Shown here: piece by piece, positions 1,095 to 27,846 of the stretch
Position numbering within the stretch: the first letter of the stretch is position 1
Layout of the letters: each line of letters begins with the position of its first letter
From: a virus
Lineage: Duplodnaviria; Caudoviricetes
DNA: 64,000 nucleotides
Reading direction: 5' to 3' (one strand)
IMG/VR virus record: IMGVR_UViG_3300007747_000009
Span: 32,001 to 96,000 of that record
Notes under the pieces: model-generated
What the model was told of the DNA's origin: nothing
Databases searched by the model: none
The model's input: only the letters and a program-made list of their open reading frames with translations
Made by a program: the position numbers and the translations under genes

Positions 1095-1121
1095 GGCAAT
1101 TCATTTTAATTGGAGGGGTTT

Positions 1122-1610: not shown

Positions 1611-2106
1611 AAAGGATATGGAATACGCGGATCTGGTTGTGGATGCAGTAAGTTGTATTATTGATAATTCCATTTGTAGCAATCATGATTACCGCACGGT
1701 AGAACTGCGTGATTACTTCGAGTTTTTTAAAAATACCAAATGGTTTGGCTCCTTTTATGAAAAAAACCAGTTCTGTATTACCATGAGTTCGTGTAATATG
1801 ATCCAGATTAATATTAATGATGATGTATGTAAATTTATTAATTTTGCAAACTTACTGAATGATACTCCGTCATCTATCATAGCAGATCCTTCAGAATATA
1901 CTGAAGAACATTATTTTCAAGAAAGCTTGATGCTAGATGCAGGGAAGCAACTTGATTTACTTTTGGTATCTAAACTTCGCAATTACCTTAAGACAACAAA
2001 ATATGTTTCAATTGAAATAATGCGTGATTACTTACCTATACTGATTTCAGATGTTAAAGCATTACGGGTTGCATCAAATGACATTTGAAAAAGATATGGA
2101 ATACGC
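1529..2106 (+). repeat. 100-bp direct repeat (1529-1628 / 2007-2106) spanning gene junctions
   Basis: About 10 mismatches in 100 bp by manual alignment. Confidence 0.9.
1600..2088 (+). CDS. FQxS-family paralog
   Basis: MTFEKDMEYA...EEHYFQESLML. Confidence 0.85.
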   Translation: MTFEKDMEYADLVVDAVSCIIDNSICSNHDYRTVELRDYFEFFKNTKWFGSFYEKNQFCITMSSCNMIQININDDVCKFINFANLLNDTPSSIIADPSEYTEEHYFQESLMLDAGKQLDLLLVSKLRNYLKTTKYVSIEIMRDYLPILISDVKALRVASNDI

Positions 2107-2533
2107 TAATAATATACTACGCATTCGCACGGCGATGGAAGATGGTTCTATCGTTGCGAAAGATGGTATTCGTTCATTCTCAACGAACCCAACTACATTT
2201 GAATACATTATGGAATTTTGCGGGGAAGATGTAGTTATCGGATACTTAGAACGTAGAATCACGCGTATGGCTAACTTTGTGACTAGTGGCGAAATATATT
2301 ACGACTATCGCTCTAATCGTATTCACACTAGATTGGCTGATGGTGGTTCACTTGTAGTAAATGTAGACAAAGAAGTAATAGATGAAGCTTGGTATTTTCA
2401 AAACAGTTTAGTCTACAACCATGATGTACTTAGGGCATTGATGGCCGTCAAAACTTTACAGAGTGTTGAATCGAAATATGAATACTTTCAACTTAAAACC
2501 CGTCACATTGACAACATACTATATAGGTTATAA
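2078..2533 (+). CDS. FQxS-family paralog
   Basis: MTFEKDMEYA...EAWYFQNSLVY. Confidence 0.85.
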   Translation: MTFEKDMEYANNILRIRTAMEDGSIVAKDGIRSFSTNPTTFEYIMEFCGEDVVIGYLERRITRMANFVTSGEIYYDYRSNRIHTRLADGGSLVVNVDKEVIDEAWYFQNSLVYNHDVLRALMAVKTLQSVESKYEYFQLKTRHIDNILYRL

Positions 2534-2535
2534 TA

Positions 2536-3018
2536 ATGACACAATTTGAATTGGACTTACATTATGCAAAAAGCATTGTTAAGATATTGGATGCAGCATA
2601 TACCGGTACTTTAGATAACAATGTTCACTTTACTATTAAAAAAAGTGTCCCTGTGCATGAAGAAGATTGGATAGGAATTAAATCCGAATATGGTATTATA
2701 GAATACAATATGAAGGACTCATTTTTCAACAATATGTTATGGTCTAACAAACAACTTCAAATAGAATCAGAATCGAAAAAGTTGTACATAGCGGGTGACA
2801 ATATGGGAACTTCATTTGAATTAATTACTAATCCAGAAGATGAAGCTACATACTTTCAAAATAGTTTAATTTATGAACCTCACATTCATAGTATGTTAAT
2901 TTTGGTAAGCTACATTAACAAATACATTAATAAGAACGATATAAAAAGCGTTAATGTACTTTTGTTAGGGGATGTTGATAAATTTATTACAGCAGCGAAT
3001 ATGATAGGAGAACCGTAA
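2536..3018 (+). CDS. FQxS-family paralog
   Basis: MTQFELDLHYA...EATYFQNSLIY. Confidence 0.85.
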   Translation: MTQFELDLHYAKSIVKILDAAYTGTLDNNVHFTIKKSVPVHEEDWIGIKSEYGIIEYNMKDSFFNNMLWSNKQLQIESESKKLYIAGDNMGTSFELITNPEDEATYFQNSLIYEPHIHSMLILVSYINKYINKNDIKSVNVLLLGDVDKFITAANMIGEP

Positions 3019-3536
3019 TGACACAATTTGAATTGGACTTACAATATGCAAAAGACATGGTTCGTGTCAGGAATGCATTACATGACGGTACTATAGATCC
3101 AGATGCAGTGACTATTACACTGTCGCATGGCGATGAATTAAAATATCAGATAACAGTAAATGATATAGTGGGGGTCTTCGCAACAATAGGTTGCAATGAC
3201 GAATTTGGTCGTCAGGATTCATATGTATCAAAAAAATGGCTACACGATATTCATAGTAATGAAGTTGAACTGCACCGGAATGAACTGCACTGGAATGAAC
3301 GTGCCTTTCCACCATATAAACGTAATTCTGAATGGTCATCCCTTCAAATACAATCTGGATATGATGAAGGGATGTATTTCCAAGATAGCTTGATTTACGA
3401 CAATACTGTACTAAGGAACATTGTTCTCATAAACTATCTTTATGCTAACCCACTTCCTAAACCTTACGATAAATTCATTTTCAATCTATCGTATTTCGAA
3501 CTTGTATTGAACGTATTAGATAGGAAAACAACATGA
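3018..3536 (+). CDS. FQxS-family paralog
   Basis: MTQFELDLQYA...EGMYFQDSLIY. Confidence 0.85.
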   Translation: MTQFELDLQYAKDMVRVRNALHDGTIDPDAVTITLSHGDELKYQITVNDIVGVFATIGCNDEFGRQDSYVSKKWLHDIHSNEVELHRNELHWNERAFPPYKRNSEWSSLQIQSGYDEGMYFQDSLIYDNTVLRNIVLINYLYANPLPKPYDKFIFNLSYFELVLNVLDRKTT

Positions 3537-3985
3537 CACAATATGAACTGGACTTACAGTATGCAAAAGATGTTAGAATCATAATTGAACGTTTTTTGAA
3601 TGATTCACCGAACATTTTTGTTAAAGATAGAGGGCATGATTATCTAAAGTTTTCTCTAAGAGGTGAACCTGTTATAAAATTTAATGATTTTGAGATGATC
3701 AGTACAACCGTAATACAAGACAAAATATTGTCACATGTATTTGGTGCAACAAAAATACAAATAGAACGTCAGTTAGTGTTAGAAACGGATGATATACAAG
3801 TTGGTTGGAAAAATGAAGAACAACATTTCCAGAACTCGTTGATCTATGATGCCAGTACTGTTCGTAGCATTCTTCTATTTTCTTACCTAATGGATCATGC
3901 ACCTTCGAAATATAAACACTTGAGAATTGATCTCAGTATAATTCCTACATTAAAAATACTGTTCGGTCTAAAAAGGAATAGCTAA
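3533..3985 (+). CDS. FQxS-family paralog
   Basis: MTQYELDLQYA...EEQHFQNSLIY. Confidence 0.85.
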   Translation: MTQYELDLQYAKDVRIIIERFLNDSPNIFVKDRGHDYLKFSLRGEPVIKFNDFEMISTTVIQDKILSHVFGATKIQIERQLVLETDDIQVGWKNEEQHFQNSLIYDASTVRSILLFSYLMDHAPSKYKHLRIDLSIIPTLKILFGLKRNS

Positions 3986-4521
3986 TGCAACAAGTGACAC
4001 AATATGAACTGGACTTACAATATGCAAAGAATATCTTACGAATCAGAGATGCATTTATGAATTCAGTACTAGACGATGATCCTAGAATTATCCGTACAAA
4101 ATCAGGTTATTCTTTTTCAATTAGAGATGAATCAGATGAATACTCAGATGAATACTTTGATAAAAGTGATGACATTATAAATGTACAATGCTATGATGAT
4201 GTAGGTCGTGGATCATACACTACTATTATTGATTATGGTGGTATTCTCATTGAAGATGGTGATACTCATATTATGATATCCAAAGATGATTATGGTACTG
4301 GAGTAGAGTACATCTACCCTACTGAGTACGGTGAAGCAGAACATTTTCAACAATCTTTAATTTATGATGAATTTACTAATAGGATGATATTGACTTCTTG
4401 GTATCTATCTAAACACCCAATAGATAAAGATGCACATTATATTTGTGATTTTGATTTAAATCGTTATAATGACATCATTGCAATCTTAGATGAATACAAG
4501 GAAGATAATGACAACGTATAA
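3985..4521 (+). CDS. FQxS-family paralog
   Basis: VTQYELDLQYA...EAEHFQQSLIY. Confidence 0.85.
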   Translation: MQQVTQYELDLQYAKNILRIRDAFMNSVLDDDPRIIRTKSGYSFSIRDESDEYSDEYFDKSDDIINVQCYDDVGRGSYTTIIDYGGILIEDGDTHIMISKDDYGTGVEYIYPTEYGEAEHFQQSLIYDEFTNRMILTSWYLSKHPIDKDAHYICDFDLNRYNDIIAILDEYKEDNDNV

Positions 4522-5050
4522 TGAAGATTTAGAATTTGCAAAGAATTTATTAGCAATATGTAAAGCTACCAAAGAACAGACATTAGATAATAAAAGATTT
4601 AAAATAAATGAGACAAAGTACTGGATTGATTTAAGATTTTCTGCCCTAGAAGATAACGGTGATTACGATCCAAATAATGATGATGACGATGATGACGATT
4701 ATCATTATATAGTTTCAGTTGAACTTGATGGTACAGTAGGTGGTTATGATGGAGAAGATAAAAATTGTTCATATTATACAGAAGATGAATTAATGTTGGA
4801 ATACGGTGATACTGAAATTTTGATTGAAACAATAGAAAATTCATATTTTCGTGAAAAATTACCCACACCAACTGAATATACAGAAGAGATACATTTTCAG
4901 AATTCATTACTATATACAGAATTCCAGAACAGAATCTTATTGGTATGTTGGTATCTTCAGTTAGAAGAGAATAGGATTAACGATGTTTCAGTACTAACAA
5001 TTCCATTTAAAAATATGGAAAATGCAATTAAAATGTTATACGGGAGTTAA
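4508..5050 (+). CDS. FQxS-family paralog
   Basis: MTTYNEDLEFA...EEIHFQNSLLY. Confidence 0.85.
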   Translation: MTTYNEDLEFAKNLLAICKATKEQTLDNKRFKINETKYWIDLRFSALEDNGDYDPNNDDDDDDDYHYIVSVELDGTVGGYDGEDKNCSYYTEDELMLEYGDTEILIETIENSYFREKLPTPTEYTEEIHFQNSLLYTEFQNRILLVCWYLQLEENRINDVSVLTIPFKNMENAIKMLYGS

Positions 5051-5052
5051 CA

Positions 5053-5574
5053 ATGTCATCGTACATAGAAGATTTAGAGTACGCTAAAAAGATATTGAAT
5101 CTTTTGAATAAAATTAAAGATAAAAAAATAGTACACGAACAATTGTTTACACGAACATTAAATTATGGTATATCAAGGACTATAGAGTTTGCATATATTG
5201 TAAGTACTCATAGCACAGTTGTTAGTTTGACAATTGGCAACAGTCAAGACAATTCAACTACAGATTATGAATCGATATGTAATAAAACATCATTAATATT
5301 TGAGTACACTGACACTAAAATTTGGATATGTGACACTGACGATCCGGATATGGATCCAATATCAATGGATATCTTTGATGATTATAGTGAAGAAGTATAT
5401 TTTCAAAACTCACTTATATACTCAGATTTTGTTAACAGAATGTTGTTAATACATTCCTACCTTATGAACCCAACTAATCGTATTAAAGGTATAAGTATTT
5501 TTGAAATATCGTGGTCTAAGATGGATGATGTACTAAAAATTATAGATGAATTAGAGAATCAAAATGACTTATAG
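5053..5574 (+). CDS. FQxS-family paralog
   Basis: MSSYIEDLEYA...EEVYFQNSLIY. Confidence 0.85.
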   Translation: MSSYIEDLEYAKKILNLLNKIKDKKIVHEQLFTRTLNYGISRTIEFAYIVSTHSTVVSLTIGNSQDNSTTDYESICNKTSLIFEYTDTKIWICDTDDPDMDPISMDIFDDYSEEVYFQNSLIYSDFVNRMLLIHSYLMNPTNRIKGISIFEISWSKMDDVLKIIDELENQNDL

Positions 5575-6046
5575 AGAAGATTTAGAGTACGCAAAAAAGA
5601 TATTAAAATTATTACAAGAAACCAATAGTAATGGGTTTAAAGATATAACTAATCTAATGGTTACTGATAATAAAGATGAAAAATATCTTGTAAAACTTGA
5701 TACACGCAATGAAGATGTATTATCACTTTCAAAAAAAGATTCCAAAGATACAAGTAGATCTTCAGACAACTCTGTGTGTTGTACTGATAGTATTATAGTA
5801 GAATATGGAGATAGTTCTATTTGTATTACAGAAAATGATTTTGAGTCTTATATTGAGATTGATTATCCTATTGAGTACACAGAAGAGATACATTTTCAGA
5901 ATTCAACAATATATAACGAAAACCAAAATAGGTTAATTTTGTTGTGTTGGTATTTAAATTTAGAACAAAATAGATTACCGGGGATTATTATGTTTGATTT
6001 ATATTGTGATGCAGTTAATAATCTTCTCCTTGAATTGGGGTATTAA
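5564..6046 (+). CDS. FQxS-family paralog
   Basis: MTYREDLEYA...EEIHFQNSTIY. Confidence 0.85.
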   Translation: MTYREDLEYAKKILKLLQETNSNGFKDITNLMVTDNKDEKYLVKLDTRNEDVLSLSKKDSKDTSRSSDNSVCCTDSIIVEYGDSSICITENDFESYIEIDYPIEYTEEIHFQNSTIYNENQNRLILLCWYLNLEQNRLPGIIMFDLYCDAVNNLLLELGY

Positions 6047-6047
6047 A

Positions 6048-6563
6048 ATGACTTATAATGAAGATTTAGAGTACGCAAAGAATATTCATCGTCTGATAAA
6101 AGCACTAGTTGATAGCAGTGAAGACGAAGGATATAGTTTTATTAGATATGAGGTTAATAGTACTACTTATTCTAATTTTTATTACAAAGAGATAGTTGAA
6201 GGTGACGATCAAAAGATGTATTTTAGAAAGATATTAACTTACATCAATACACCTAATAATAATTTAGTAACTGATAGTACTGGTACTAATTATATTTCTT
6301 TAGAAGATAGATCTACAAGTTACGTGATTAATGTTTCTAAAAATTGTACACAAGAATATACATATAGTACAGAAACATGGAAATCTGAAGAGGAACACTT
6401 TCAAAATTCGTTGATCTATGATGATGATACGAATAGGAACATTTTAGTTATGAAGTACATTAAGGATCATTTTCCTTCTAATATGAAGTACTTAAGAATG
6501 CAACTTAACGAGCGTATTATCACAGAATTGTTCAAAAGGATACTACCGGATGTTATCGACTGA
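6048..6563 (+). CDS. FQxS-family paralog
   Basis: MTYNEDLEYA...EEEHFQNSLIY. Confidence 0.85.
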   Translation: MTYNEDLEYAKNIHRLIKALVDSSEDEGYSFIRYEVNSTTYSNFYYKEIVEGDDQKMYFRKILTYINTPNNNLVTDSTGTNYISLEDRSTSYVINVSKNCTQEYTYSTETWKSEEEHFQNSLIYDDDTNRNILVMKYIKDHFPSNMKYLRMQLNERIITELFKRILPDVID

Positions 6564-7158
6564 AACGGATATAATGCAGTACATTTATAAGATGGAAAAG
6601 GTATTGACTTTTTTGAATACCTTTGATACAAGTAAATGCAATACGTTATCTTATCCAATCAATGAAAAATTTGAGATACGCATTTCTTCGAGTGAATCGA
6701 ATCAACAATGGATTGAGATATTTAGACCAGATGTAACGGATAATGTCAATTCCCTTGACACAAGGGATGGATTGGGATATCATGTGATTAAGACCTACCC
6801 TAGTGGTCTTAGGAACATAGAAGTTATGTCATATTACAATGACGATTTCTATAATGAGTTTATGTTTCACGAATCGAAAAATAGTAGTTCATTAAGAACC
6901 ACGGTTGCCCATGAGATGAAGGATGAAATTATAGAGTTAGCACAGTACGATTTGAGTACAGAAGAGGGTAGATTTCAGCTTAGTTTAATGTACAGTTTAC
7001 AAGTTGTGAATATATTATCTATTCATCAATATTTTTACAACAAACAAGTACAACCTTTTAGCTGTTGGTTTCATAGTGAGTTCAATGAATTATATGAGGT
7101 ATTAGATGACAAATACAAATTTAGAATTAGCACAGAAGCTGAAGGTACTAACACATAA
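6550..7158 (+). CDS. FQxS-family paralog
   Basis: EEGRFQLSLMY. Confidence 0.8.
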   Translation: MLSTETDIMQYIYKMEKVLTFLNTFDTSKCNTLSYPINEKFEIRISSSESNQQWIEIFRPDVTDNVNSLDTRDGLGYHVIKTYPSGLRNIEVMSYYNDDFYNEFMFHESKNSSSLRTTVAHEMKDEIIELAQYDLSTEEGRFQLSLMYSLQVVNILSIHQYFYNKQVQPFSCWFHSEFNELYEVLDDKYKFRISTEAEGTNT

Positions 7159-7669
7159 ATTTCATGCTAATCCAGATGTATTGTTTGAGTACTATAATCT
7201 TAAAATTCATAGTTGGGATCAGACCCTTGCTGCTGAGAACCAAATTCATATTTTACGCAATGCAGATTTACAAGTACTCATTAGTACAGGAGGGAAAGAT
7301 TCTAAAGAGTTGTGTAAGAGTTATATTTTATTGGATGGTTCACATATTATAAAGTACCCCGGACATTCAGAACATCCTAATAACAATGTATTACATGCAT
7401 TTGATAAGAAGAGTGATTTTTTCAATTTAAAAGACAATAGATATGATTTATCTATTCCACCGGAAAATGAAGAAGAGTTTTTGTTCCAGCAGAGTTTAGT
7501 ACTACCATCGTTTGTGTACGATTCATTTGAATTGATGTTGTATATACGTAGGACGACGAATTTACCGTTTATGGTAAATTTAAAATTATTGAATATCGAT
7601 GAGGCATTAGGGGTTTATGATGAACAAAAATATGGTATCAGTGAAGAAATTAATATTTTTAAGTTATGA
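7106..7669 (+). CDS. FQxS-family paralog
   Basis: EEFLFQQSLVL. Confidence 0.8.
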   Translation: MTNTNLELAQKLKVLTHKFHANPDVLFEYYNLKIHSWDQTLAAENQIHILRNADLQVLISTGGKDSKELCKSYILLDGSHIIKYPGHSEHPNNNVLHAFDKKSDFFNLKDNRYDLSIPPENEEEFLFQQSLVLPSFVYDSFELMLYIRRTTNLPFMVNLKLLNIDEALGVYDEQKYGISEEINIFKL

Positions 7670-7670
7670 G

Positions 7671-8198
7671 ATGCTAGCAAATTCAACGAAGGGTGAAAAG
7701 ATAGCTTTTTTAGCACAATCATTTTATGACAATCCAGAATTATTATGTAATACAATGGATTTTGAATATCATGATCATCACATGACGGATCAGTACGGGT
7801 ATGATGTTACCGGTCGTGAATTTTATGCTGCAATGAATAATGATACGGGTTCTATTATTATAAGTGTTGGTGAGTATCATAATAGTGAGGATATGAGCAG
7901 GTGGAAATTTGATCCATTCAAAAATGACATATTAACATTTCATACCAACCCGGATTGTAATGAATTTAATTATTCATATGAGACATTGGGACATAAAGAT
8001 GTATTTTATTTGGATGATGAATTATTTTCGAGTGAAGAGGGTTTATTCCAACAGAGTACAATATTGTGCGATGTAGCTTTTGAAACCCTAGAGATATATT
8101 TGCATTTACGCAGAGAATGCAGTATTCCGTTCAAGATGAATTTATCATTATTTGATTTAGATGCAGCAGTGAGGGTATATATAGATGCAGCTCAATAA
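7671..8198 (+). CDS. FQxS-family paralog
   Basis: EEGLFQQSTIL; C-terminus matches the previous gene (PFxxNLxLxxxDxA). Confidence 0.8.
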   Translation: MLANSTKGEKIAFLAQSFYDNPELLCNTMDFEYHDHHMTDQYGYDVTGREFYAAMNNDTGSIIISVGEYHNSEDMSRWKFDPFKNDILTFHTNPDCNEFNYSYETLGHKDVFYLDDELFSSEEGLFQQSTILCDVAFETLEIYLHLRRECSIPFKMNLSLFDLDAAVRVYIDAAQ

Positions 8199-8763
8199 CA
8201 TTCAAACATTTGGCGAATTGTGCGAGTACGTAGATGATGTAATTAAATTATTAGAATTATGTTACAATAACAGAACACATGAGATGTTAATCATTAATGG
8301 TGTAGTAAAATTTGGTGGTTATAACAACGGTATAGATTACAGATTTTCATTATTTGGACAGGAGTTTGGAGCATATTGTTTTTATAATTTAGATCCAGAT
8401 GATTATTCATGGGTTAATATTACAGAATGGAATAGGATTGATTATTACATTTTCAGACAAGAGAACATAGATTTCTTTGAAATGACCATGTTCGAAAAAC
8501 CAAAGACAACGGTATTAGGAAAAGAAAAGTGTGAATTTGATTTTTTGAATTTATCATCCTGTACAGAAGAGATGTATGAACAATTACAATACCTACATGA
8601 TCCTGAAATAGTAAAATCTATTATGATAATGAGTTTGTTTTACAGAAAAGGTCATAAACAGTTTGCGTTTTACGACCACACAAATTGTGATCCAAAGAAG
8701 ATGTACGATGCAATTAAGGATATGATTAATGAATTTCCATGCAACAAAGTTATTAGCGGATGA
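8185..8763 (+). CDS. FQxS-family paralog (EEMYEQLQY variant)
   Basis: CTEEMYEQLQYLH. Confidence 0.8.
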   Translation: MQLNNIQTFGELCEYVDDVIKLLELCYNNRTHEMLIINGVVKFGGYNNGIDYRFSLFGQEFGAYCFYNLDPDDYSWVNITEWNRIDYYIFRQENIDFFEMTMFEKPKTTVLGKEKCEFDFLNLSSCTEEMYEQLQYLHDPEIVKSIMIMSLFYRKGHKQFAFYDHTNCDPKKMYDAIKDMINEFPCNKVISG

Positions 8764-9162
8764 AATTATTGAGTTCAGTAGATTATGCAATATAATCAAG
8801 GACACGGTTATTCCAAGTACAGTTCAGTACGGACCTAATTCTGTACATAATTTTTTCTCTTCATCAGGTATGAGAATAGATCTAAGATTGTACAATGATG
8901 GTAGTATTGATTATGCGTTTAGTTATAGAGGTGCAAATTTTTGTACATGGGAACGAGTTGATGTTGCATTAAATCAACATGGTAATTCATATGTATATAA
9001 TTATTCTTCTTCATCGGGAAGTTATGTTGCTTTCAAGTACACAAATATGGGTTCAGATGAAATGGAATATATTGCAACCTACCAACCTATAGAAAATATT
9101 ACAATTCCTGTATTAAAATTATGTGAATGTACAGAAGAGATGTATGAACAATTACAATACCT
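8560..9162 (+). repeat. 35-bp exact direct repeat (8560-8594 / 9128-9162)
   Basis: TGTACAGAAGAGATGTATGAACAATTACAATACCT occurs twice and encodes the family motif. Confidence 0.9.
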
Positions 9163-9307
9163 TCACCCTAATGAGATAGTACATAGTCTTTTTATTGTAT
9201 CATTAATGCAGGCATATGGGGTTATTGGGATATTCAACACAAATACAGTTGAAGGTGATGATATGAATACAATTAATAAGAAATTGAGGATGGTACATGA
9301 CGCGTAA
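8729..9307 (+). CDS. FQxS-family paralog (EEMYEQLQY variant)
   Basis: CTEEMYEQLQYLH. Confidence 0.8.
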   Translation: MNFHATKLLADEIIEFSRLCNIIKDTVIPSTVQYGPNSVHNFFSSSGMRIDLRLYNDGSIDYAFSYRGANFCTWERVDVALNQHGNSYVYNYSSSSGSYVAFKYTNMGSDEMEYIATYQPIENITIPVLKLCECTEEMYEQLQYLHPNEIVHSLFIVSLMQAYGVIGIFNTNTVEGDDMNTINKKLRMVHDA

Positions 9308-9758
9308 TGAATTTGATTATAATAAATCAAAAGAGTATTGTGAAAAAATATTATATATTATTAAAACGTATCCTAAAATTAGACAGAAGTTCATTGAACA
9401 TCCATATGAAGCCAGTAGCTCTTTATTTTATGCAAATATGGATGATCAAACATGGACATGGGATAGTATAGTATTTGATAAAAAATTCAATTTCGAGTAT
9501 TTTAACAATAAGAATCATTTTGTTATGTACGATGGTTGGGATGCTACATCCAATACCTATTGGACCCCTGAACAATTAGAGGATGAGGGATTTTTATTTC
9601 AGCAGTCTTTGGCGTTTGATTATCATATGATGTTTAGTATATGTTGTGTGTCGTGGTTACATGCAATGGAAATTAGCAATTTATATATAGTCTGTGATGT
9701 ATCGCCCGAAGATCTTCATATCATGTACCAAGACGCGGTGGTGTATAACAATGTATAG
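9297..9758 (+). CDS. FQxS-family paralog
   Basis: EGFLFQQSLAF. Confidence 0.8.
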   Translation: MTRNEFDYNKSKEYCEKILYIIKTYPKIRQKFIEHPYEASSSLFYANMDDQTWTWDSIVFDKKFNFEYFNNKNHFVMYDGWDATSNTYWTPEQLEDEGFLFQQSLAFDYHMMFSICCVSWLHAMEISNLYIVCDVSPEDLHIMYQDAVVYNNV

Positions 9759-10395
9759 CCCTTTAATTAGAGTAGTAGATGCATTTGAGAAATGTACCAG
9801 TACAGAATTGAAGTTTAAAAGTTCTGTAAAAATTGGAAGTGTTAAGATCGACGGTAAAGAGTATGGTGTACGCATCAAGAAAGTATATGATAAAGCTGGA
9901 GAAAAACCGGGATATCGTTGTGAGTTGAAGATGGAAGTACCGACGAGTAGTGGTTTATTATATGTATCGATTGCAGATTTTATATCATATACGGAGTTCG
10001 AAGTAAACATGTCTCCGAGTTTATTATTTTCGGATAAGTTTTTAGGATGTTATGCATCCCCTGATTATAATTTTAAATCCCCGATGAAGATATCATGTGG
10101 AATTGATTTTATGTTAGAAGGTAATATTAGTACAGAAATGTATAATGCATTTGAGCGGGAATTATTCATGCATAACATTGCTTGCAGATCAGGTGAAGTA
10201 ATTGATGATGTGCTTATGTTAGATTTATATCAAATTATATTAGACCTTTTGAGTACACCTCATCGTGAGATTACGGGGTTGGAGTTATTACACACCACCG
10301 TTTACGTAAACAATTACACGAAGGTTAAGATACCGTACGATGCTATTGCTGAGTTGATTGAAGAATATAATCGTATATTTCAAAAGGATAAATAA
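9751..10395 (+). CDS. hypothetical protein, possibly a divergent family member
   Basis: Long ORF; only a degenerate motif (ERELFMHN). Confidence 0.7.
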   Translation: MYSPLIRVVDAFEKCTSTELKFKSSVKIGSVKIDGKEYGVRIKKVYDKAGEKPGYRCELKMEVPTSSGLLYVSIADFISYTEFEVNMSPSLLFSDKFLGCYASPDYNFKSPMKISCGIDFMLEGNISTEMYNAFERELFMHNIACRSGEVIDDVLMLDLYQIILDLLSTPHREITGLELLHTTVYVNNYTKVKIPYDAIAELIEEYNRIFQKDK

Positions 10396-10536
10396 ATGTT
10401 ATGCTTCGGGGGACATATGTGCCGGGGCATAAAAAAAATTCCGCTTCACAAGGTGTAAAATAAGGTTTAAGATAGTATATAAACGGGGCGACCGGGCGAC
10501 GGTGGCATGAGATTGGATTTTATATTGTAGGTATAT

Positions 10537-11106
10537 ATGTTATTAGCAGAATGTAGTAAGTATGATATTTTTAAGATGACCGAGGCATTAAAGATGTTTC
10601 ATGCTATATCGTACGATGTATCAGCTATTTCCAAAGCGAATAGATACTTTAAAAAGTTCCCCAAAATACATTGTACAATTGATTTATATGATAATATGGT
10701 AATTATGATGAATGATAAGTTCAGGGATGATAAATTCCTCTCTGAATCTATGATGGTATCATTTCGTAAATCCCCGAGTATAGCTGCGGGTAGAATTAAT
10801 CAACTACCCAAACATCAGTCAATTATAATTGAACACGCAGTGAATGAAAGTCTTTTTTTCGAAAACAAATTAATATTTTCTAGTGCTTCAGAAGTGCCAG
10901 TACTAGAGAATGAAGATGAACTATTTCAGAACCGTTTGTTGTATACTGAATCTGAACTTAATGCCATATATATCTACCACAACTTTGATGAAATTATAGT
11001 AGAAGCCGGATCCTATCTTAGGATTTGCGAAAAATATTATGATGATTTTATTAAACTCTATGACCATTTAGATGAACTAAGGGACTTGATGTATGATATC
11101 AAATGA
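10537..11106 (+). CDS. FQxS-family paralog
   Basis: EDELFQNRLLY. Confidence 0.8.
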   Translation: MLLAECSKYDIFKMTEALKMFHAISYDVSAISKANRYFKKFPKIHCTIDLYDNMVIMMNDKFRDDKFLSESMMVSFRKSPSIAAGRINQLPKHQSIIIEHAVNESLFFENKLIFSSASEVPVLENEDELFQNRLLYTESELNAIYIYHNFDEIIVEAGSYLRICEKYYDDFIKLYDHLDELRDLMYDIK

Positions 11107-11680
11107 GGTTGTACTAACTTCTATAAAAATAAATGCACTAAAAGATATTATAAGAATTATGTTTGAAATGCATGAACAGCGTTTTGTTGTTGAAAAAAAT
11201 AATAATATTGTAACTCTAAGAAATAATGCAAATGGTTTTGGTAGATTCAGTACTGTAATATCTGCTGAAGATGAATGGTTTATTTTATCCATTCACAGTA
11301 CTGAAATAGATGAATCTCTACGAGAAGTATGTGCTACTATGGATGATACATGTAATGGTGGCACTGAAGATGATGGTTCGGTATATGGTTTTAATGCACG
11401 AGAAAAAGTAATAATTGATAAGAGAAATGGTTGTGCAGAAAAATATCCGATCTTAACAAATGTAGAAGATATTGATGCATTCCTATTTCAATCACAGACC
11501 ATATACAGTGATTCAGTTACTTTGGCATTATTAGTACAGTACCTTTCTTCAGGATTTATAAAAGAAAAAGTGTACTTATCATATAACATTTCTAAACTTT
11601 TAAAGATTAGTGAAGACGATCTAGATAAAGTACTGAATTTTATTAGTCACATTTGGGAGGATAATAAAATTGTATGCTGA
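11093..11680 (+). CDS. FQxS-family paralog
   Basis: DAFLFQSQTIY; shares FSTVxxAED-WFxLSxH with the next gene. Confidence 0.8.
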   Translation: MISNEVVLTSIKINALKDIIRIMFEMHEQRFVVEKNNNIVTLRNNANGFGRFSTVISAEDEWFILSIHSTEIDESLREVCATMDDTCNGGTEDDGSVYGFNAREKVIIDKRNGCAEKYPILTNVEDIDAFLFQSQTIYSDSVTLALLVQYLSSGFIKEKVYLSYNISKLLKISEDDLDKVLNFISHIWEDNKIVC

Positions 11681-12267
11681 GTGTTAATAAGATAGAAAAA
11701 TTGATTAGCTTATGTAAGTTACTAATTAAATTTCATTTGGATAGAAAAATTATTAATATACCTATTAATCCAGATTTTCGACTATCAAATCATGGTTGGG
11801 ATAATAGTAATCCTTTAGATTGTTCAAAATTCAGTACAGTAGTGTATGCAGCGGAAGATCAGTGGTTTATGTTATCAGTACATGATTATGCTAACGGAAG
11901 TGATTCTGATACTATTTCTTCAATTAATTTTAATAATAATAAAGAGATAAACGGTTCAATACAGTCAAGTTCGATAAATGCAGAAGAAGTTATATTGGAT
12001 AATAGAAATTGGACTCAGCATTCTTTGTTATCTACATTTGATAATTTAGATTCACAACTATTCCAATTACAGACTATACATGATGATCATATTATCTTGG
12101 CTATGCTTATTCAGTACTATATGTATAACCATTTAAATGATAATTATTACATATCATACAATACTACAAAGATTATAGATTTTGATGATGATGAATTTGA
12201 TAACATGTGTGATAATATCAAAGACGTATATGAGAGGTATGATGATTATATCAAAGGAGCAAACTAA
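11674..12267 (+). CDS. FQxS-family paralog
   Basis: DSQLFQLQTIH. Confidence 0.8.
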   Translation: MLSVNKIEKLISLCKLLIKFHLDRKIINIPINPDFRLSNHGWDNSNPLDCSKFSTVVYAAEDQWFMLSVHDYANGSDSDTISSINFNNNKEINGSIQSSSINAEEVILDNRNWTQHSLLSTFDNLDSQLFQLQTIHDDHIILAMLIQYYMYNHLNDNYYISYNTTKIIDFDDDEFDNMCDNIKDVYERYDDYIKGAN

Positions 12268-12772
12268 ATCATTAGTACAGTTACTTAGAATGTGCTGTAT
12301 AATGGTTGGAAAATGTCAATCGCATGTAAGTGAGACACTTAGGATTGGTAAAACCGAAATAAAAATTAACAATAAAAATATATCAGTATACCATGATGGA
12401 TTACATGTTTTAGTACTTTCAGCATCACCACATTTTTCAATCCCGTATAGGTTTGCTTTTACTGAAGGTATTAATTTTTGTTTATTCTATTGTACTGAAA
12501 AAAATAATTCAGTGGGTGAATTACACAAAAGAGATGGTACGGTTGTTAAAATTGAATTACAAGAAAAATACAGTTCAGAAGATTGGGATGGAGCGGCTTT
12601 TCAGAACAGTACAATGTATGATGGCATGATCCCGAATTTTATCATGATCGAGCCGTATATTTCTGAGGTATTAAAAGATCAATGGAATTTAAAATTGTAT
12701 ACAATTTCAGAGAGTTGGGTAGATTTACCATTTGATGAGATGTACGATAATTTATATTTTTTGGATTATTGA
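12239..12772 (+). CDS. FQxS-family paralog
   Basis: DGAAFQNSTMY. Confidence 0.75.
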   Translation: MMIISKEQTKSLVQLLRMCCIMVGKCQSHVSETLRIGKTEIKINNKNISVYHDGLHVLVLSASPHFSIPYRFAFTEGINFCLFYCTEKNNSVGELHKRDGTVVKIELQEKYSSEDWDGAAFQNSTMYDGMIPNFIMIEPYISEVLKDQWNLKLYTISESWVDLPFDEMYDNLYFLDY

Positions 12773-12773
12773 C

Positions 12774-12816
12774 TTGACTTAGGGCGGTGTACATGTTACA
12801 CTGCCCTTTCTATTTT
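12774..12816 (+). promoter_or_regulatory. internal array promoter nested in a terminator hairpin
   Basis: TTGACT 12774-12779, 17 bp, TG-T-TACACT 12794-12802; stem AGGGCGGTGT/ACACTGCCCT then a T-rich tail. Confidence 0.7.
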
Positions 12817-12828
12817 AAGGAGATTTGT

Positions 12829-13425
12829 ATGAAAAAACGAGAACTAGAAATCCTAAACATCACTAAGTTAATCGATCAAGTCTTTGATGATATTATTAAT
12901 CGCAACGATAATGGATTAATAATTGGAAACTTTATAATTAAAAAACTTATGAAGAAAGGTGAAAAAGGATTTGAGTATGATGGTATTTCTATTTCACAAA
13001 TAGCCAGATGGAGTGTTAATGCTTATACAGTACTAGAATTTTTCAGATGTAGTGATGAAGACAACAAATACCAATCCAATAGTGAAAGTACTGGTGACCG
13101 TTACACCATCGATATTCGTAGTAATTATTGTGTAATTGAATATCAACACGAATACGAATTCTATAGTGATTTTGTTATTGCACAAGATGATATTCCATAT
13201 GACAGTACTGCATCAGTAGAAGAACGCAAAATGAGTGTTGATATAGCTATCGATAATGTTATGCTTAATGAATTTATGCATGAGGTTATTGAATTTCAAA
13301 GTTCAGGGTTGAAGAATATAAACATAATAAAATATAAACATAATTTAGGTGAAATAGATTTTATGCGGGAAGGTTTATACCAACAAATGATCAAACGTCC
13401 ATACTTTAAAAGGTTGATAAAATGA
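12829..13425 (+). CDS. hypothetical protein within the array
   Basis: AAGGAG RBS before ATG 12829; family motif weak (EVIEFQSS). Confidence 0.75.
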   Translation: MKKRELEILNITKLIDQVFDDIINRNDNGLIIGNFIIKKLMKKGEKGFEYDGISISQIARWSVNAYTVLEFFRCSDEDNKYQSNSESTGDRYTIDIRSNYCVIEYQHEYEFYSDFVIAQDDIPYDSTASVEERKMSVDIAIDNVMLNEFMHEVIEFQSSGLKNINIIKYKHNLGEIDFMREGLYQQMIKRPYFKRLIK

Positions 13426-14069
13426 ATCATCACAGTTTAGTACAGCATTATAAAATTCTAAAGCATATGGCTAATCTTTCTGAGGTGATGTTTAACAATG
13501 GTAAAAATCCAGACATAGCCAAAAGAATGAAATGGGACATATATGAAACTGATGATGACACCTATCGTGTGTTGTTTGATAAAACAACCAGTTTATTTGA
13601 GTTAATCAGAATACACAAAAGTTCAGGTTATAAACTTGCTAATACTAGTATTACTAATACCGTTTTATCTTATGTTAATAATTATATTTACAGTGGGGCA
13701 AGTAATGGTAGTAGTTTTGGATTAAGATTAAATTGTCGTGAAAAAGATATAATTTATGTCACACCAGATAACCGTTCTAAAATTGATCTTTCTATATTAC
13801 CAGATACAGTACTTGAATTATTAGAAAGAGATTGTTATGAAGAATTAGAATTCCAATACAGTACTTTATACAATTTCGAAGGGCAATCATTTCAACTGTA
13901 TTGCATTTATAGCCTTTTGTCACATGCAGATAATATTCATACATTTCCGGTTCCGGGTTATTATGTAAACATTGATTTAGTAAAACGTGTTTATGAAAGT
14001 GATATTGACGAAGTTGAATCAGCATTGTATAATTTATTACAAAAAACCATTAAGGATTTATCATGTTAA
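13422..14069 (+). CDS. FQxS-family paralog
   Basis: EELEFQYSTLY. Confidence 0.8.
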   Translation: MNHHSLVQHYKILKHMANLSEVMFNNGKNPDIAKRMKWDIYETDDDTYRVLFDKTTSLFELIRIHKSSGYKLANTSITNTVLSYVNNYIYSGASNGSSFGLRLNCREKDIIYVTPDNRSKIDLSILPDTVLELLERDCYEELEFQYSTLYNFEGQSFQLYCIYSLLSHADNIHTFPVPGYYVNIDLVKRVYESDIDEVESALYNLLQKTIKDLSC

Positions 14070-14596
14070 AAGTTCGCTTTAAAATTTTATCCCTTTTAGA
14101 GGATATTTTAAAACATCTACAATTTAATTCGATTACTGATTTCACTCATAATATTGGCAATGATCATGTAGTTACCAGTCGTAATACTGAAAATGGTGGA
14201 CACATAATTTCCATTTATTCATATAAAGATATGCTTCAAAAATATAGTTTAGATACTGGTGTAGAAAGTGAAATTGTATATGGTGTAATTACTATTCCAC
14301 AACTATGTTTAGTTTTATCAATCACTAAATGTGAAGAACTAATACTACCCAATAAGGGTACTATTGCAATCCGAAATGATATAAATTTGAATACAGATGC
14401 TGAGTCTACTTTATTCCAGTTGAGTACAATTTATGATGACACTATACTTACAGCACTTGCACTTGTATCACATTTTAAACACCATTCAGTACTACCTTTA
14501 TTGAATTTGGGTTTTTCGTGTTATGCAGATGATGAAGATGAATTGAACAAGGTCATTACTGATTTAGAATCCATAAAGGAGAAGTTATATGAGTGA
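14063..14596 (+). CDS. FQxS-family paralog
   Basis: ESTLFQLSTIY. Confidence 0.8.
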   Translation: MLKVRFKILSLLEDILKHLQFNSITDFTHNIGNDHVVTSRNTENGGHIISIYSYKDMLQKYSLDTGVESEIVYGVITIPQLCLVLSITKCEELILPNKGTIAIRNDINLNTDAESTLFQLSTIYDDTILTALALVSHFKHHSVLPLLNLGFSCYADDEDELNKVITDLESIKEKLYE

Positions 14597-15110
14597 TATT
14601 ATTAGTACTTTTATGCAACGTGTAGTTAACTTACATAAATCAAAAACACTATCACGAGGGAGTCATATTAAATTTTTTAATAGCAAACATATTATTTTCA
14701 TTTACAAAGATAAAGTTGAGTTCCGGGAAAAGAGTAATAATTTATGCAGATTAGCAATTGCGTTTTCTATGCGTGGGGAAGATAAAGCTAATAACTCCCG
14801 TGAGTTCGGAGGGGATGTTAGTTACTTATTCAAATCTAACTACAAACAAACTATTACCATTTACGATAATTCTGGAAGTTTTGAGATTGACATTCCACGC
14901 TTCAATGACAATGAAGAAGAACTACTCTTTACCCTCAGTACTTTGAGTAATTCGGCTTTGTCTATTTTAATGTCATCAATTCTATTGACAATGGACACTG
15001 CGTTGAATACAGTATACTCATATGGTCTTCAGAACGAGGATCTTGAATCATTTAGTGAAATCATGGGGATGGCAGAAGAATGGAATACCAAAATTACACA
15101 AATCTATTAA
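14589..15110 (+). CDS. FQxS-family paralog
   Basis: EELLFTLSTL. Confidence 0.75.
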   Translation: MSDIISTFMQRVVNLHKSKTLSRGSHIKFFNSKHIIFIYKDKVEFREKSNNLCRLAIAFSMRGEDKANNSREFGGDVSYLFKSNYKQTITIYDNSGSFEIDIPRFNDNEEELLFTLSTLSNSALSILMSSILLTMDTALNTVYSYGLQNEDLESFSEIMGMAEEWNTKITQIY

Positions 15111-24709: not shown

Positions 24710-25545
24710 AACTACAACTACTATATGACTTTCTAAGCCCCCCTGATAATGATGGAGATTATGTGGATGAGGATGTTGGATATGCATCAAATTCGTATAC
24801 TAACTCAAAGCTACCACATGAACATACTAATTTTCATAGTTCACTATTCAGTCGAATGAGTAAGTACTTTAAATCTATAAATCGTTATGCTACTATTAGT
24901 TTAGTAGAAGTACCTGATGATGTAATGTTTCAGTACATGATTGAAAACGTATTTGACTATGATTATGTTTCGTATGATATGTTTCAGCATAGAATTTGCA
25001 TATCGAATTCTAAGTATGAAAGTACTCGTTATGGGCGGGAGTCATATGGATACGCCACAGCTTCAAACTCTTCTAGCTATGCAAATGGTAATATTTTTAC
25101 ATTCGGTCATGAGCATAATTCTGAATTGGAAAAAACCCAAGATGAAAGAAAGACGTACTGCATTGTTCCAGATGCAGAACATTATTCAAATATTTTAGAA
25201 GTACTTAGGCCACATGTGGTTTATGAATTTGCTAGGTGGTTTAAAGAGGGAGCTAGGATTATTGGTGAAACTCAGGATCTTGGAATTATTTCATACTCAG
25301 ATGACCCGGTTGGTGACTATGGATATAATTCAGTTAAGAATTCTGGAAGAATTTTTCTTGATAATGAAAAAGGCAGTACCGAGACATTCAATCTCAGATA
25401 TGACCAATTTTCTACGTGTATGGACTTCTGGATGAATGATCATGTACTATTCACAGAAGCACGTCAGTTCATTTCAGATCTCGAGGTAGAGGCTTACAGA
25501 GCGTTATATGCGATGATTCATACTGAAATAACTGAGACAAAATGA
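24706..25545 (+). CDS. hypothetical protein
   Basis: TTG start coupled to the previous stop. Confidence 0.75.
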   Translation: MKLQLLYDFLSPPDNDGDYVDEDVGYASNSYTNSKLPHEHTNFHSSLFSRMSKYFKSINRYATISLVEVPDDVMFQYMIENVFDYDYVSYDMFQHRICISNSKYESTRYGRESYGYATASNSSSYANGNIFTFGHEHNSELEKTQDERKTYCIVPDAEHYSNILEVLRPHVVYEFARWFKEGARIIGETQDLGIISYSDDPVGDYGYNSVKNSGRIFLDNEKGSTETFNLRYDQFSTCMDFWMNDHVLFTEARQFISDLEVEAYRALYAMIHTEITETK

Positions 25546-25597
25546 CAAAAATGTGATATAATATAGGGGTAAAGACGTGTGTTCTTTACCCCTTTTT
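25534..25597 (+). promoter_or_regulatory. class-2 promoter followed by a terminator hairpin
   Basis: GAGACA 25534-25539, 17 bp, TATAAT 25557-25562; AGGGGTAAAG/CTTTACCCCT-TTTT 25565-25597. Confidence 0.7.
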
Positions 25598-26085
25598 AAT
25601 TCTGAATGATCCCATTTATGGGAATTTTAAAGCACCTGATTCACTCGAAAATGTAGAGGACAGATGAGTAGTTCATTCAGTACGATTAGCAGATGATACC
25701 CGTTAGGAGATGGCATAGTTTGTACCACCCACGGCAATGCGGCTATAAAAACCAAGTCAGAATTACATAAGTACTTGGCGTGTACACGGCACGATAGACA
25801 TATAGGACTCGCACCTACCAAATGTATAAGGGAATCACCTTATTCTATTGTGCGACGTATTTTAGGGCTAGCCCTTAATCCGTCCAGAATTTGAGTGATA
25901 AGTACAATAACTGTTCATGTTGTTATTGTGCTATGCGTAGTAAGACTACGACCGTTGCATAGAACCGCGATAGGGAGAAACAGGGCAACCCGCTTCCGCT
26001 CACTATATGAAATTCGTGACATGAAATGATGAAACCACCAGCGTCAAATTATATTTTCTTCCCCACCCAGTGGGGGGATGAAATT
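25568..26085 (+). ncRNA. candidate large structured ncRNA, family unassigned
   Basis: No credible ORF, GC higher than the flanks, nested long-range and local stems, upstream promoter. Confidence 0.55.
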
Positions 26086-26241
26086 GAATCAACAAACCTC
26101 GTCAATAATTAAAGTACAATAATTAATTAATAAGAATATTAAAATACGAACGCTAGTGAGTATTTTGATTTTCTTATTTTAAATCGTCTAACGAAGTTAG
26201 ATGATTCTTTATTGTTTATATCAAGCAAGAGAAATAAAATA

Positions 26242-26789: not shown

Positions 26790-27317
26790 ATGGGTGGAAA
26801 GGAAATCACCAACGACAAATCAATACATTACAGCTCAGGGAAAGATATTTGGTGTACTCCACCAAAACTCTTTAATGATCTAAATTCCTTATGGAACTTT
26901 ACGTTAGATGCTGCTTGTATGAAAGAAACTGCTTTATGTAAAAAGTACTTCACACCAGATGACAATAGTCTAATCCAAGACTGGAGTACTGATACTGTCT
27001 GGTTAAACCCGCCGTACAGTGATTTAAAAACATGGTTAGGTAAAGCAGTACAAGAATATAAACGTGGTGCTACGGTAGTAATGTTAGTACCATCTAGAAC
27101 AGATACTATTGCATTTCAGAATTTTGCAGTTCCTGAGTGTAGTTGCATTTGTTTTGTTAAGGGAAGGATTACTTTTATTGATCCAGAAGAAACCGATTTG
27201 GATAAGAAAAAGAATCCTGCACCCTTTCCAAGCTGTTTATTAATTTTAGATAATGACTTAACAGAAGAGAAAATAGAATACTTAAAAACTTTAGGACGGG
27301 TAATGAAAAATGTCTAA
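26790..27317 (+). CDS. dam: phage DNA N6-adenine methyltransferase (Dam family)
   Basis: WCTP...FTLDAAC...YFT..DNSL.QDW...WLNPPYS...VMLVPSRTDT...GRITF. Confidence 0.9.
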   Translation: MGGKEITNDKSIHYSSGKDIWCTPPKLFNDLNSLWNFTLDAACMKETALCKKYFTPDDNSLIQDWSTDTVWLNPPYSDLKTWLGKAVQEYKRGATVVMLVPSRTDTIAFQNFAVPECSCICFVKGRITFIDPEETDLDKKKNPAPFPSCLLILDNDLTEEKIEYLKTLGRVMKNV

Positions 27318-27846
27318 AACGTGTGTGTTTATGTACGGGAGAATGAATCCAGTACACTTAGGTCACGGTATGGTGTTCGATAAAGCTTTGAACTTGCAAA
27401 ATGACAGTACTGATGTTAAACTCTTTTTGAGTTCATCCTATGATACAGAAAAGAACCCACTTCCCAGAGAAGTTAGACAGTACTTTATATCTGAGTTCTT
27501 CCCTGATATTCGGGATAACATTCAAGATGTGTATGTAAAAAACCTCTTCGATATCATGAAATCCCTTGATGGTGAGTACAACAACGTTGTGTTCGTTGGT
27601 GGTTCTGATAGGACTGATAATTTTCAAAAAACCCTTGACAAATACAACGGAAAGGAATATAATTTTAATTCAATCAGCACAGTACTAGCTGGGATGGATC
27701 GAAATGCGTCGATTTACAGCAGTACTCACATGCGTGAGTCAGTACTAAAAGATGATTTTGAATCATTCAAGATATGTCTTCCGGGAGATAATGAATACTT
27801 AAAATATGATATGTTTTGTCGTGTCCAACGGCATATGGGGATATAA
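27310..27846 (+). CDS. HxGH-family (cytidylyltransferase-like) nucleotidyltransferase
   Basis: GRMNPVHLGH, KNPL, VGGSDR, SSTHMR. Confidence 0.85.
   Translation: MSKTCVFMYGRMNPVHLGHGMVFDKALNLQNDSTDVKLFLSSSYDTEKNPLPREVRQYFISEFFPDIRDNIQDVYVKNLFDIMKSLDGEYNNVVFVGGSDRTDNFQKTLDKYNGKEYNFNSISTVLAGMDRNASIYSSTHMRESVLKDDFESFKICLPGDNEYLKYDMFCRVQRHMGI

Follow-up and report, generated by a model that had tools for sequence, protein, structure and literature searches.

Large structured RNAs of bacteria and phages that lack a known function are rare, and they have repeatedly proved to be new machines, such as ribozymes, RNA cages and guide RNAs. In plasmids of the ColE1/pMB1 type the RNA II pre-primer is a structured transcript of about 550 nt with its own promoter, and its fold decides the fate of a site just downstream. 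The GOLLD (RF01998) and ROOL (RF03087) families, large 'ornate' RNAs known from bacteria, phages and prophages, comprise stand-alone non-coding RNAs 0.5-0.8 kb long that have numerous helices and pseudoknots, their own promoter and no known function, and are carried by phages as well as integrated elements; both form multimeric RNA-only cages (bioRxiv 10.1101/2024.12.08.627333). Phage T4 has at least five early origins, of which oriF and oriG combine a promoter with an A+T-rich unwinding element at which the transcript forms a persistent R-loop, and oriE relies on an early promoter; no sequence motif is common to these origins, and an R-loop can form there without any specific sequence (PMC3016281). 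Finally, RNA-seq of phage PA5oct defined four non-coding RNAs, ncRNA001-004, in promoter-distal, ORF-free regions of the + strand, which are 0.24-0.62 kb long, two of them being highly expressed (PMC7318152).

The locus considered here lies in a stretch of 64,000 nt (the window) that belongs to a 109-kb fragment from a Rak2/121Q-like jumbo phage. For this phage group it is, to our knowledge, not understood how replication is initiated. The predicted RNA resembles GOLLD and ROOL in size, helical complexity, promoter and carriage by phages and integrated elements, but has no sequence or structure match to either at E values up to 10, and unlike them occurs as three to five diverged paralogs per genome at conserved sites. 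With RNA II it shares a structured transcript, as predicted, of comparable size with its own promoter, whereas an antisense partner of the RNA I type, an RNase H site and a G-run/C-run clamp have not been shown here; moreover, RNA II has no knotted invariant core of such size, and the core found here does not co-vary with the downstream DNA. The T4 origins are comparable in that T4-related replication machinery is present and several sites combine a promoter with an A+T-rich element, but the copies described here are homologous to each other, about 640 nt long and structurally constrained. The PA5oct RNAs likewise come from ORF-free + strand regions in a jumbo-phage relative of the Rak2 group, but are not homologous: the conserved motifs are absent from ncRNA002. 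They were rejected as expressed homologues, the best match of our covariance model R1 in the whole PA5oct genome having an E value of 5.2 and lying elsewhere.

Identification of the locus

The nearest named relatives at the locus are Klebsiella phage fENko-Kae01 and the Salmonella phages Munch and 7t3 (87% identity by blastn). The region of interest (25546-26241) sits between genes for proteins of 279 and 178 aa, both of unknown function and belonging to PHROGs without names. An earlier note, made from the letters alone, had described it as the only long ORF-free stretch of the window, GC-richer than its flanks and preceded by its own promoter, and each of these points was borne out. When ORFs of 70 aa or more are marked on both strands, 25546-26211 is the sole uncovered stretch of at least 250 nt in the 64-kb window (short ORFs of 39-64 aa are present within the region). 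The core (25634-26077) has 43.7% GC, whereas the window as a whole has 33.4% and each 1-kb flank 34%; the 3' part (26095-26241) has 22%. The promoter reads GAGACA-17 nt-TATAAT, with TG before the -10 element.

Transcription would be expected to start near 25566-25570. A promoter of the same type, with the layout RRRACR-N-TGNTATAAT, lies upstream of every aligned copy, and sites of this type in phage Munch number 27 on the + strand and none on the - strand. Compared with the region upstream of gp32 in Munch, the unit matches in the shared promoter only. The hairpin next to the promoter probably serves both to end the upstream operon and as the 5' stem-loop of the RNA; a 5' hairpin lies at this place in other copies too, with or without a U-tract. 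The likely 3' end is the F2 hairpin with its U-rich tail, of which other copies hold versions with compensating changes; the ATG of the downstream gene (26242) follows about 30 nt after this terminator-shaped hairpin. Several paralogs, not including the window copy, have a hairpin with U7, the shape of an intrinsic terminator, directly after P11. Munch copy 3 and its orthologues lack a downstream gene, the module there giving way to convergent genes and a two-way terminator, which indicates that the module is a stand-alone unit. As read from the sequence, the gap is filled by a promoter-to-terminator unit of about 640 nt on the + strand (~25569-26210), of which transcription itself is not shown. 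Twelve RNA-library runs match part of the stretch, mostly wastewater 'RNA-Seq' in which DNA may be present. Contigs of four of these runs lie mainly over the conserved blocks and many continue into unlike sequence, implying that they derive from relatives or paralogs; level, strand and ends are not shown by them. A single metatranscriptome contig of 159 nt spans 25735-25844 with 7 differences. None of these contigs was counted as evidence of transcription, and the absence of contigs over the flanks was given no weight either.

A search of the whole window with the 4227 models of Rfam 15 gave no match at the gathering score. At E values up to 10, the locus, two 200-nt pieces of it and ten other copies yielded only scattered, chance-level matches, with no family recurring. 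The models included GOLLD, ROOL, OLE, raiA, HEARO, RNase P, tmRNA, group I and II introns, hammerhead, 6S and Polynucleobacter-1, so that the result agrees with the earlier note, which by eye could not match the region to GOLLD, ROOL, tmRNA, RNase P RNA or a group I intron. ARAGORN detected no tRNA or tmRNA gene in the window. Full-text literature searches on jumbo phages, RaK2, 121Q, PBECO4, ncRNA and ornate RNA found no description of the RNA; the family was thus not found in the RNA catalogues and literature searched.

Individual candidates were also rejected. A group I intron is inconsistent with a unit that lies between two complete, unrelated ORFs with its own promoter and terminator hairpin, and whose five copies occupy five contexts. 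Hammerhead ribozymes have the invariant core CUGAUGA ... GAAA, in which U4 and A6 are conserved; in the candidate at 25661-25685 (CAGAUGAG-hairpin-CGA) position 4 is A and position 6 is A or U among the copies (AGAUGAG or AGUUGAG), and the hammerhead models of Rfam found no match at the locus. A 14-codon ORF that begins in element E at an AUG after a G-run shifts frame between copies through indels.

Distribution and history of the copies in phages

Searches with blastn detected the region in 62 phage records, at several places per record. Phage Munch has five copies, which all lie on the + strand, each within an unannotated gap of 575-693 bp and in differing gene contexts. The six sequences are about 60% identical, with invariant blocks lying between stems that differ yet stay complementary. 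An exact-pattern scan with two invariant blocks added 34 copies from IMG/VR and four from bacterial genomes, and blastn one further copy in E. coli. Copies were counted with R1, a model of the 3' core: five are present in Munch, CBB, fHe-Yen9-04, XbC2, XaC1, pEa_SNUABM_12 and two IMG/VR genomes, four in 121Q and three in RaK2, where one gap measures 184 kb. Since the number varies from three to five across phages, no single site is indispensable.

Neighbouring copies in the eight five-copy genomes are 34-94 kb apart, and the layout is common to several genera. The smallest gap in Munch is 53.5 kb, for which the chance with five random points on a 350-kb circle is (1-5*53.5/350)^4 = 0.003. Most of the genomes compared are collinear, XaC1, 121Q and G004 having another layout, so that the spacing comes close to a single evolutionary observation. 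In a phylogenetic tree the copies group by genomic position across genera (support of 95/83 for copy 1, 100/100 for copy 2 and 95/94 for copy 5), which means that the paralogs are older than these phage genera. The window copy falls in the copy 1 class together with those of Munch, GAP32 and fHe-Yen9-04 (the same 95/83 node). Exceptions in the tree, such as the first copy of CBB, hint at occasional exchange between copies. The genes beside the copies differ at every copy, and no obvious partner of the RNA was apparent among them.

Structure of the RNA

The features of the window copy are given in Table 1.

Table 1. Features of the predicted RNA unit, in positions of the 64,000-nt window
Feature	Positions	Strand	Remarks
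Sigma-70-type promoter	25534-25562	+	-35-like GAGACA 25534-39; 17-nt spacer; extended -10 TGTGATATAAT 25552-62
11-bp hairpin with T5	25565-25598	+	directly 3' of promoter; annotated terminator in phage Munch
Second small 5' hairpin, UCCCA..UGGGA	25610-25623	+	after conserved CUGAAUG
P1, local hairpin	25641-46/25656-60	+	conserved loop GAAAAUGUA; 5/5 pairs change on both sides; 81.7% paired
P2	25668-25683	+	3-bp stem; T-loop-like loop GUUCAUUCAG; conserved flanks AGAUGAG and CGA; 98.4% paired; middle pair UA/AU/CG
P2b-closed domain	25686-25746	+	P2b = 25686-90/25742-46
P3base	25700-03/25731-34	+	within P2b domain
P3, bulged hairpin	25706-13/25725-30	+	within P2b domain; short and long variants among copies
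Invariant strand CGGCAAUGCGGC	25732-43	+	within P2b domain
P4 hairpin, CCAAGU/ACUUGG	25752-25778	+	6/6 pairs change on both sides; 94.4% paired
Invariant single strand GAUAGACAUAU	25792-25802	+	unchanged in 43/43 sequences
Px hairpin, UAGG/CCUA	25803-25817	+	96.5% paired
PK2 pseudoknot	Px loop 25809-14 with 25850-55	+	3' strand inside P5; five complementary versions
Invariant AAGGGA, then P5 and peripheral module	25827-25899	+	P5 = 25834-37/25896-99; 92.1% paired; 4/4 pairs change on both sides
P6 hairpin, 11 bp	25902-25931	+	10/11 pairs change on both sides
PK1 pseudoknot	P6 loop 25914-20 with 26019-25	+	99.6% paired (244/245 cells); 6/7 pairs change on both sides; four versions
Knotted 3' core	25936-26025	+	invariant strands CGACCGU, GAAACAG, ACCCGC
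P7	25936-39/25947-50	+	within 3' core
P9	25954-58/25985-89	+	crosses HA and P8
HA	25966-70/26014-18	+	within 3' core
P8	25973-77/25993-97	+	within 3' core
P10	26000-02/26008-10	+	within 3' core
P11 hairpin (tentative), GAUG../..CGUC	26028-26047	+	ends in conserved CAGCGUCA
G/C hairpin, then element E	26061-26107	+	hairpin 26061-66/26072-77, C-to-U opposite G only; E = conserved strand AUGAAAUUG..AUCAACAAACCUCGUCA
A/U-rich linker, ~40 nt	26104-26143	+	mean 22% GC over first 40 nt after E (38/38 copies measured)
F1 hairpin, 10 bp	26138-26169	+	loop GAACGCUAGUGA; different hairpins here in other paralog classes
F2 hairpin with U-rich tail	26182-26216	+	versions with compensating changes in other copies

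Helices were derived from column-pair statistics and anchored comparison in an alignment of 43 homologues, comprising phage and bacterial copies, and the resulting structure of 84 pairs in 16 helices was then tested with a counting tool. The alignment has 92.8% of its cells paired. Shuffling lowers this to 73.2% (none of 500 shuffles reached the observed value), and sliding the partner to 40-42%. The covariation score is 0.475, compared with 0.178 for the shuffled and 0.07-0.10 for the slid control, and 62 of the 84 pairs change on both sides. Thus 16 helices are supported by comparison, two of which cross others as pseudoknots, and a third pseudoknot, PK2, is supported separately. G-U cells outnumber A-C cells by 245 to 56 across the alignment, an asymmetry indicating that the RNA is read from the + strand, as the earlier note had inferred from G-U pairs. 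The G/C hairpin changes only from C to U opposite G, which further implies that the + strand is folded and that the fold reaches past the core. Single-sequence folding was weak evidence (z = -1.65 for the + and -1.48 for the - strand) and did not discriminate; structural support rests on the comparison of homologues. Judged from that comparison, selection acts on the sequence of the unit to keep it folding as a single large RNA, about 640 nt in length.

The helices P9, HA and P8 are paired in 100% of cells in the 43 sequences, with 3-4 pairs in each changing on both sides, and the 3' strand of PK1 comes after HA. About 60 unpaired junction nucleotides are invariant in phage and bacterial copies alike, the junction strands being kept across paralogs that are only about 60% identical; this pattern fits a precise three-dimensional core. 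The periphery is more variable. The clade of the window copy has an extra small hairpin at 25779-88, and the peripheral module, which in most copies is a hairpin with the loop AAUAUAGAUCC, is inserted in P5 or in P10 depending on the paralog. Two island copies have one at each site. A docking element of a modular RNA behaves in this way. Where the P5 insertion is present, PK2 takes the forms TCGCA/TGCGA, GTGCA/TGCAC, GATGCAT/ATGCATC, GATGC/GCATC and GATA/TATC. The G/C hairpin and E region are conserved in the phage copies and in three of the five island copies, and partly altered in the two Serratia copies. P11 has poor column-wise support in the alignment, and inspection by eye gave no support for a hairpin inside element E.

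The comparison that the earlier note had proposed, collecting homologues and looking for covariation, also sorts the helices that it had drawn. CCAAGT/ACTTGG (P4, 94% of cells paired, with all six pairs changing on both sides), AGTACAATAAC/GTTATTGTGCT at 25901/25922 (P6, 87-88%), CGTAGT/ACTACG (P7, 83-90%) and CCCCAC/GTGGGG (the G/C hairpin, 88%) were recovered. For TCGCAC/GTGCGA the pairing itself holds, in five complementary versions, although not as a plain nested helix: it joins a hairpin loop to a downstream strand as a pseudoknot. The architecture as drawn had a nested long-range helix as its enclosure, and this outer part falls away: TCACTCGAA/TTTGAGTGA and GGACAGAT/ATCCGTCC are paired in only 65% and 54% of cells, and their strands instead form the local P1 and P5 (82% and 92% paired, with every pair changing on both sides). 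ATAAGG/CCTTAT, at 53%, is unsupported as well. The central proposal of a new, large and ornate phage RNA is upheld by the covarying, pseudoknotted fold in 43 homologues and the empty Rfam 15 search, with transcription still not shown. We are nearly certain that the locus is a real structured RNA gene of an uncatalogued jumbo-phage family, for which model R1 together with the invariant blocks serves as the definition. In the window copy all family blocks occur in order (CGGCAAUGCGGC, GAUAGACAUAU, AAGGGA, CGACCGU, GAAACAG and ACCCGC) together with P2b, P4, P6/PK1, P9, HA and P8.

Copies in bacterial islands

Outside phages the RNA is present in only 2 of 5,426 complete E. coli genomes, and no copy was found on plasmids or in 150 other sampled Enterobacteriaceae species. 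The bacterial copies, one each, reside in small integrative islands of E. coli, Citrobacter and Serratia. In E. coli LR-29-1 an island of about 10 kb beside ffs combines the RNA with a tyrosine integrase (cut by an IS3 element), unknown proteins, a DUF4326-mSLOG/DUF488/DuOB trio and a small resolvase. The 9.5-kb island of Citrobacter amalonaticus P55 lies between ppdD/hofB and nadC, and has the RNA directly after a large serine recombinase, along with genes for a CI-like repressor, three unknown proteins, a resolvase and a GmrSD nuclease. A full serine recombinase also precedes the RNA in Serratia sp. 2723, whereas Serratia L9 has a decayed version with a truncated recombinase. The RNA of the islands is placed directly after the integrase, under its own promoter and beside accessory cargo that includes defence-type genes. 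Promoter and core are retained in the island copies, and element E is kept in three of five. The encoded proteins mostly lack Pfam or PHROG names, and tblastn found no homologue of an island protein in phage Munch; no recognisable replication protein is encoded in the Citrobacter and E. coli islands. The island copies occupy two separate positions in the phage tree, which implies at least two transfers.

Functional inferences

The reading that we prefer, which in our judgement stands at even chances and whose mechanism is a guess, is that the RNA is a stand-alone, trans-acting folded molecule, working as a ribonucleoprotein or in a ribozyme-like manner. Whatever the mechanism, we infer that the host RNA polymerase transcribes it from the standard sigma-70-type promoter of the phage, and that the 5' hairpin insulates it from the upstream operon and protects its 5' end. 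Under the proposal the invariant knotted core would recognise one conserved partner, be it a protein, another nucleic acid or a ligand, and would act like that of a ribonucleoprotein or ribozyme-like machine; the variable peripheral modules would be what differs among the paralogs. In the islands the copy might be expressed as accessory cargo, tapping the same partner or interfering with it. The triply knotted invariant core, the modular periphery, the stand-alone unit, the accessory position in islands and the variable copy number all fit such a diffusible RNA. The differing neighbours of the copies and the absence of co-evolution between the core and its own downstream DNA also count in its favour. 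Against it, the conserved positions, which are regular in five-copy genomes, remain unexplained, as do the lack of homogenisation among the paralogs and the conservation of the A/U-rich tract and the post-core elements; also, no transcript has been shown and no partner identified.

Some of these features are accommodated by an RNA-primed origin of replication, a role that the earlier note had itself raised as a rival and that is not excluded. An early transcript would fold, stay hybridised to its template in the A/T-rich tract next to the core, and prime the leading strand or load the phage helicase, much as ColE1 RNA II and the R-loop origins oriF and oriG of T4 do; the three to five copies would be the origins of the genome, and an island would carry its copy in order to be replicated by an infecting jumbo phage. 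We consider this reading possible but rather unlikely. It would explain the 34-94 kb spacing in the eight five-copy genomes, improbable by chance in Munch and common across genera, but that spacing is hardly more than one evolutionary observation, and RaK2 with three copies and a 184-kb gap and 121Q with four do not conform to it. The expected layout is present (the promoter at 25534-62, which is of the early type, then the structured RNA and a 40-nt tract of 22% GC after E, in 38 of 38 copies measured), as a layout only, with which other readings are compatible. Phage T4 provides the precedent, with at least five early origins and an R-loop at a promoter with an A+T-rich element, but its R-loops need no specific sequence and its origins share no motif (PMC3016281), which leaves the invariant knotted core unexplained. 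The absence of a recognisable replication protein in the Citrobacter and E. coli islands agrees with an origin, whereas the absence of the element from plasmids speaks against one. The constraint at the RNA level also continues past the A/T tract (G/C hairpin, F1/F2), and the core shows neither excess identity (means of 8.4 for self vs 8.5 for non-self) nor excess complementarity (8.3 vs 8.2) to its own downstream 225 nt. The GC skew of the whole Munch genome follows transcription and gene orientation without a sawtooth, and is uninformative on origins here. A more speculative version, to which we give rather little weight, is that the RNA may be the specificity element of a new type of viral origin, the knotted early transcript both marking and opening each start site, of which a 350-kb genome would have up to five at regular spacing, with the islands having captured a copy either to be replicated by an infecting jumbo phage or to jam its initiation. 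If this version were true, the islands would be the first satellites or decoys of Rak2-like phages.

The RNA of HK022 put is about 70 nt long. Processive antitermination of the kind that it mediates, or a riboswitch-like control, would make our RNA a cis-acting leader of the downstream genes, a very large 5' element working on the polymerase that transcribes it or on the message, which we regard as improbable. Terminator-shaped hairpins at 25565-98, after P11 in several paralogs and at 26182-26216, as well as co-directional genes that usually begin within about 30 nt downstream, might be so interpreted, and placement at intervals behind strong promoters would suit the reloading of a terminator-resistant polymerase; but Munch copy 3 and its orthologues have only convergent genes and a two-way terminator downstream, the downstream genes are unrelated from copy to copy, and the size and invariant core far exceed known leaders of such kind. 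That the region is not an RNA at all, being instead a DNA-level element (a protein-binding array or a packaging or recombination site) or a missed protein gene, is barely credible: some segments are indeed conserved without covariation (element E and AAAGUACAA) and short ORFs of 39-64 aa exist, but compensation in 62 pairs, among them those of long-range and crossing helices, is the signature of a single-stranded fold, the asymmetry of G-U over A-C is strand-specific, indel lengths are not multiples of three, and the frame of the 14 codons in E does not persist.

Whether it acts in trans, as we prefer, or otherwise, the old, position-conserved paralogs and the capture by islands point to a central role in the jumbo-phage life cycle, possibly at the start of replication. 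The presence of the RNA in culturable phages of E. coli, Salmonella, Klebsiella, Erwinia, Yersinia and Xanthomonas, some of which are considered for therapy, makes genetics feasible. Several deposited annotations overlay small hypothetical proteins on these loci, which should instead be annotated as RNA genes.

Possible paralog exchange in the RNA family, and a probable phage promoter

The knotted non-coding RNA of about 640 nt occurs as several paralogs in genomes of Rak2/121Q-like jumbo phages, classed by position as copy 1 to copy 5, and position and sequence class do not always coincide. The first-position copies of phage CBB (about 32.7 kb) and of one IMG/VR genome cluster with the 'copy 5' class (82/96 support in the tree) and fall outside the other 'copy 1' sequences; as judged from this tree, the grouping suggests that gene conversion or replacement may have occurred between RNA paralogs. 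One of the five copies in Erwinia phage pEa_SNUABM_12 (MT939486.1; about 330.7 kb) lies on the strand opposite the other four, which reflects either an inversion or some quirk in how the record was assembled or oriented.

In the Salmonella jumbo phage Munch the motif RRRACR-N14-16-TGNTATAAT is found genome-wide at 27 sites on the + strand and at none on the - strand, with two of the 27 sites located upstream of the gp32 homologue. This motif, together with the exact motif TGTGATATAAT that recurs in the window, is probably the standard host-polymerase promoter of the phage.

Features in the window and in related loci
Feature	Location	Strand	Remarks
Exact motif TGTGATATAAT	window 22855, 25552, 56421	+	
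Exact motif TGTGATATAAT	window 39529	-	
Regions matched by wastewater contigs	window 25634-25706 and 25911-25998		
Dam-type N6-adenine methyltransferase and cytidylyltransferase-like nucleotidyltransferase	window 26790-27846		located downstream of the RNA, two genes on
PA5oct ncRNA002	MK797984.1 14452-14902		G+C-rich; promoter-like ATAAT boxes of its own; terminator at end
Citrobacter amalonaticus P55 island, 9.5 kb	845-10147 of the P55 locus		between ppdD/hofB and nadC
E. coli LR-29-1 integrative island, ~10 kb	about 4650-15000 of NZ_AP027515.1 3470138-3488215, reversed		

The methyltransferase downstream of the window copy matches Pfam Dam at 4.5e-33, and the methyltransferase and nucleotidyltransferase genes are in the same order in Munch.

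Relatives in sewage and other large RNAs

Many short contigs in wastewater 'RNA-Seq' libraries from several studies match only the conserved blocks of the RNA and then diverge; hence relatives of the family appear to be common in sewage, with RNA and DNA being indistinguishable in this material. ncRNA002 of the related jumbo phage PA5oct shows no sequence kinship to the window RNA family, and such phages may therefore carry other large RNAs.

RNA copies in integrative islands

In the P55 island the RNA follows a large serine recombinase and is joined by a CI-like HTH-S24 repressor, three proteins of unknown function, a resolvase and the type IV restriction nuclease GmrSD. As no capsid or replication genes are present in its 9.5 kb, the element may be a satellite, or else a defence island. 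One of the three unknown proteins shares 73% identity with one from the LR-29-1 island, which adjoins the SRP RNA gene ffs and has an integrase interrupted by IS3. Here the RNA lies inside an unannotated 1.4-kb gap, and the cargo comprises a DUF4326-mSLOG/DUF488/DuOB trio of conflict-system domains, a small resolvase and unknown proteins. EEC_W5 is the sole other complete E. coli genome with an RNA copy identical to that of LR-29-1.
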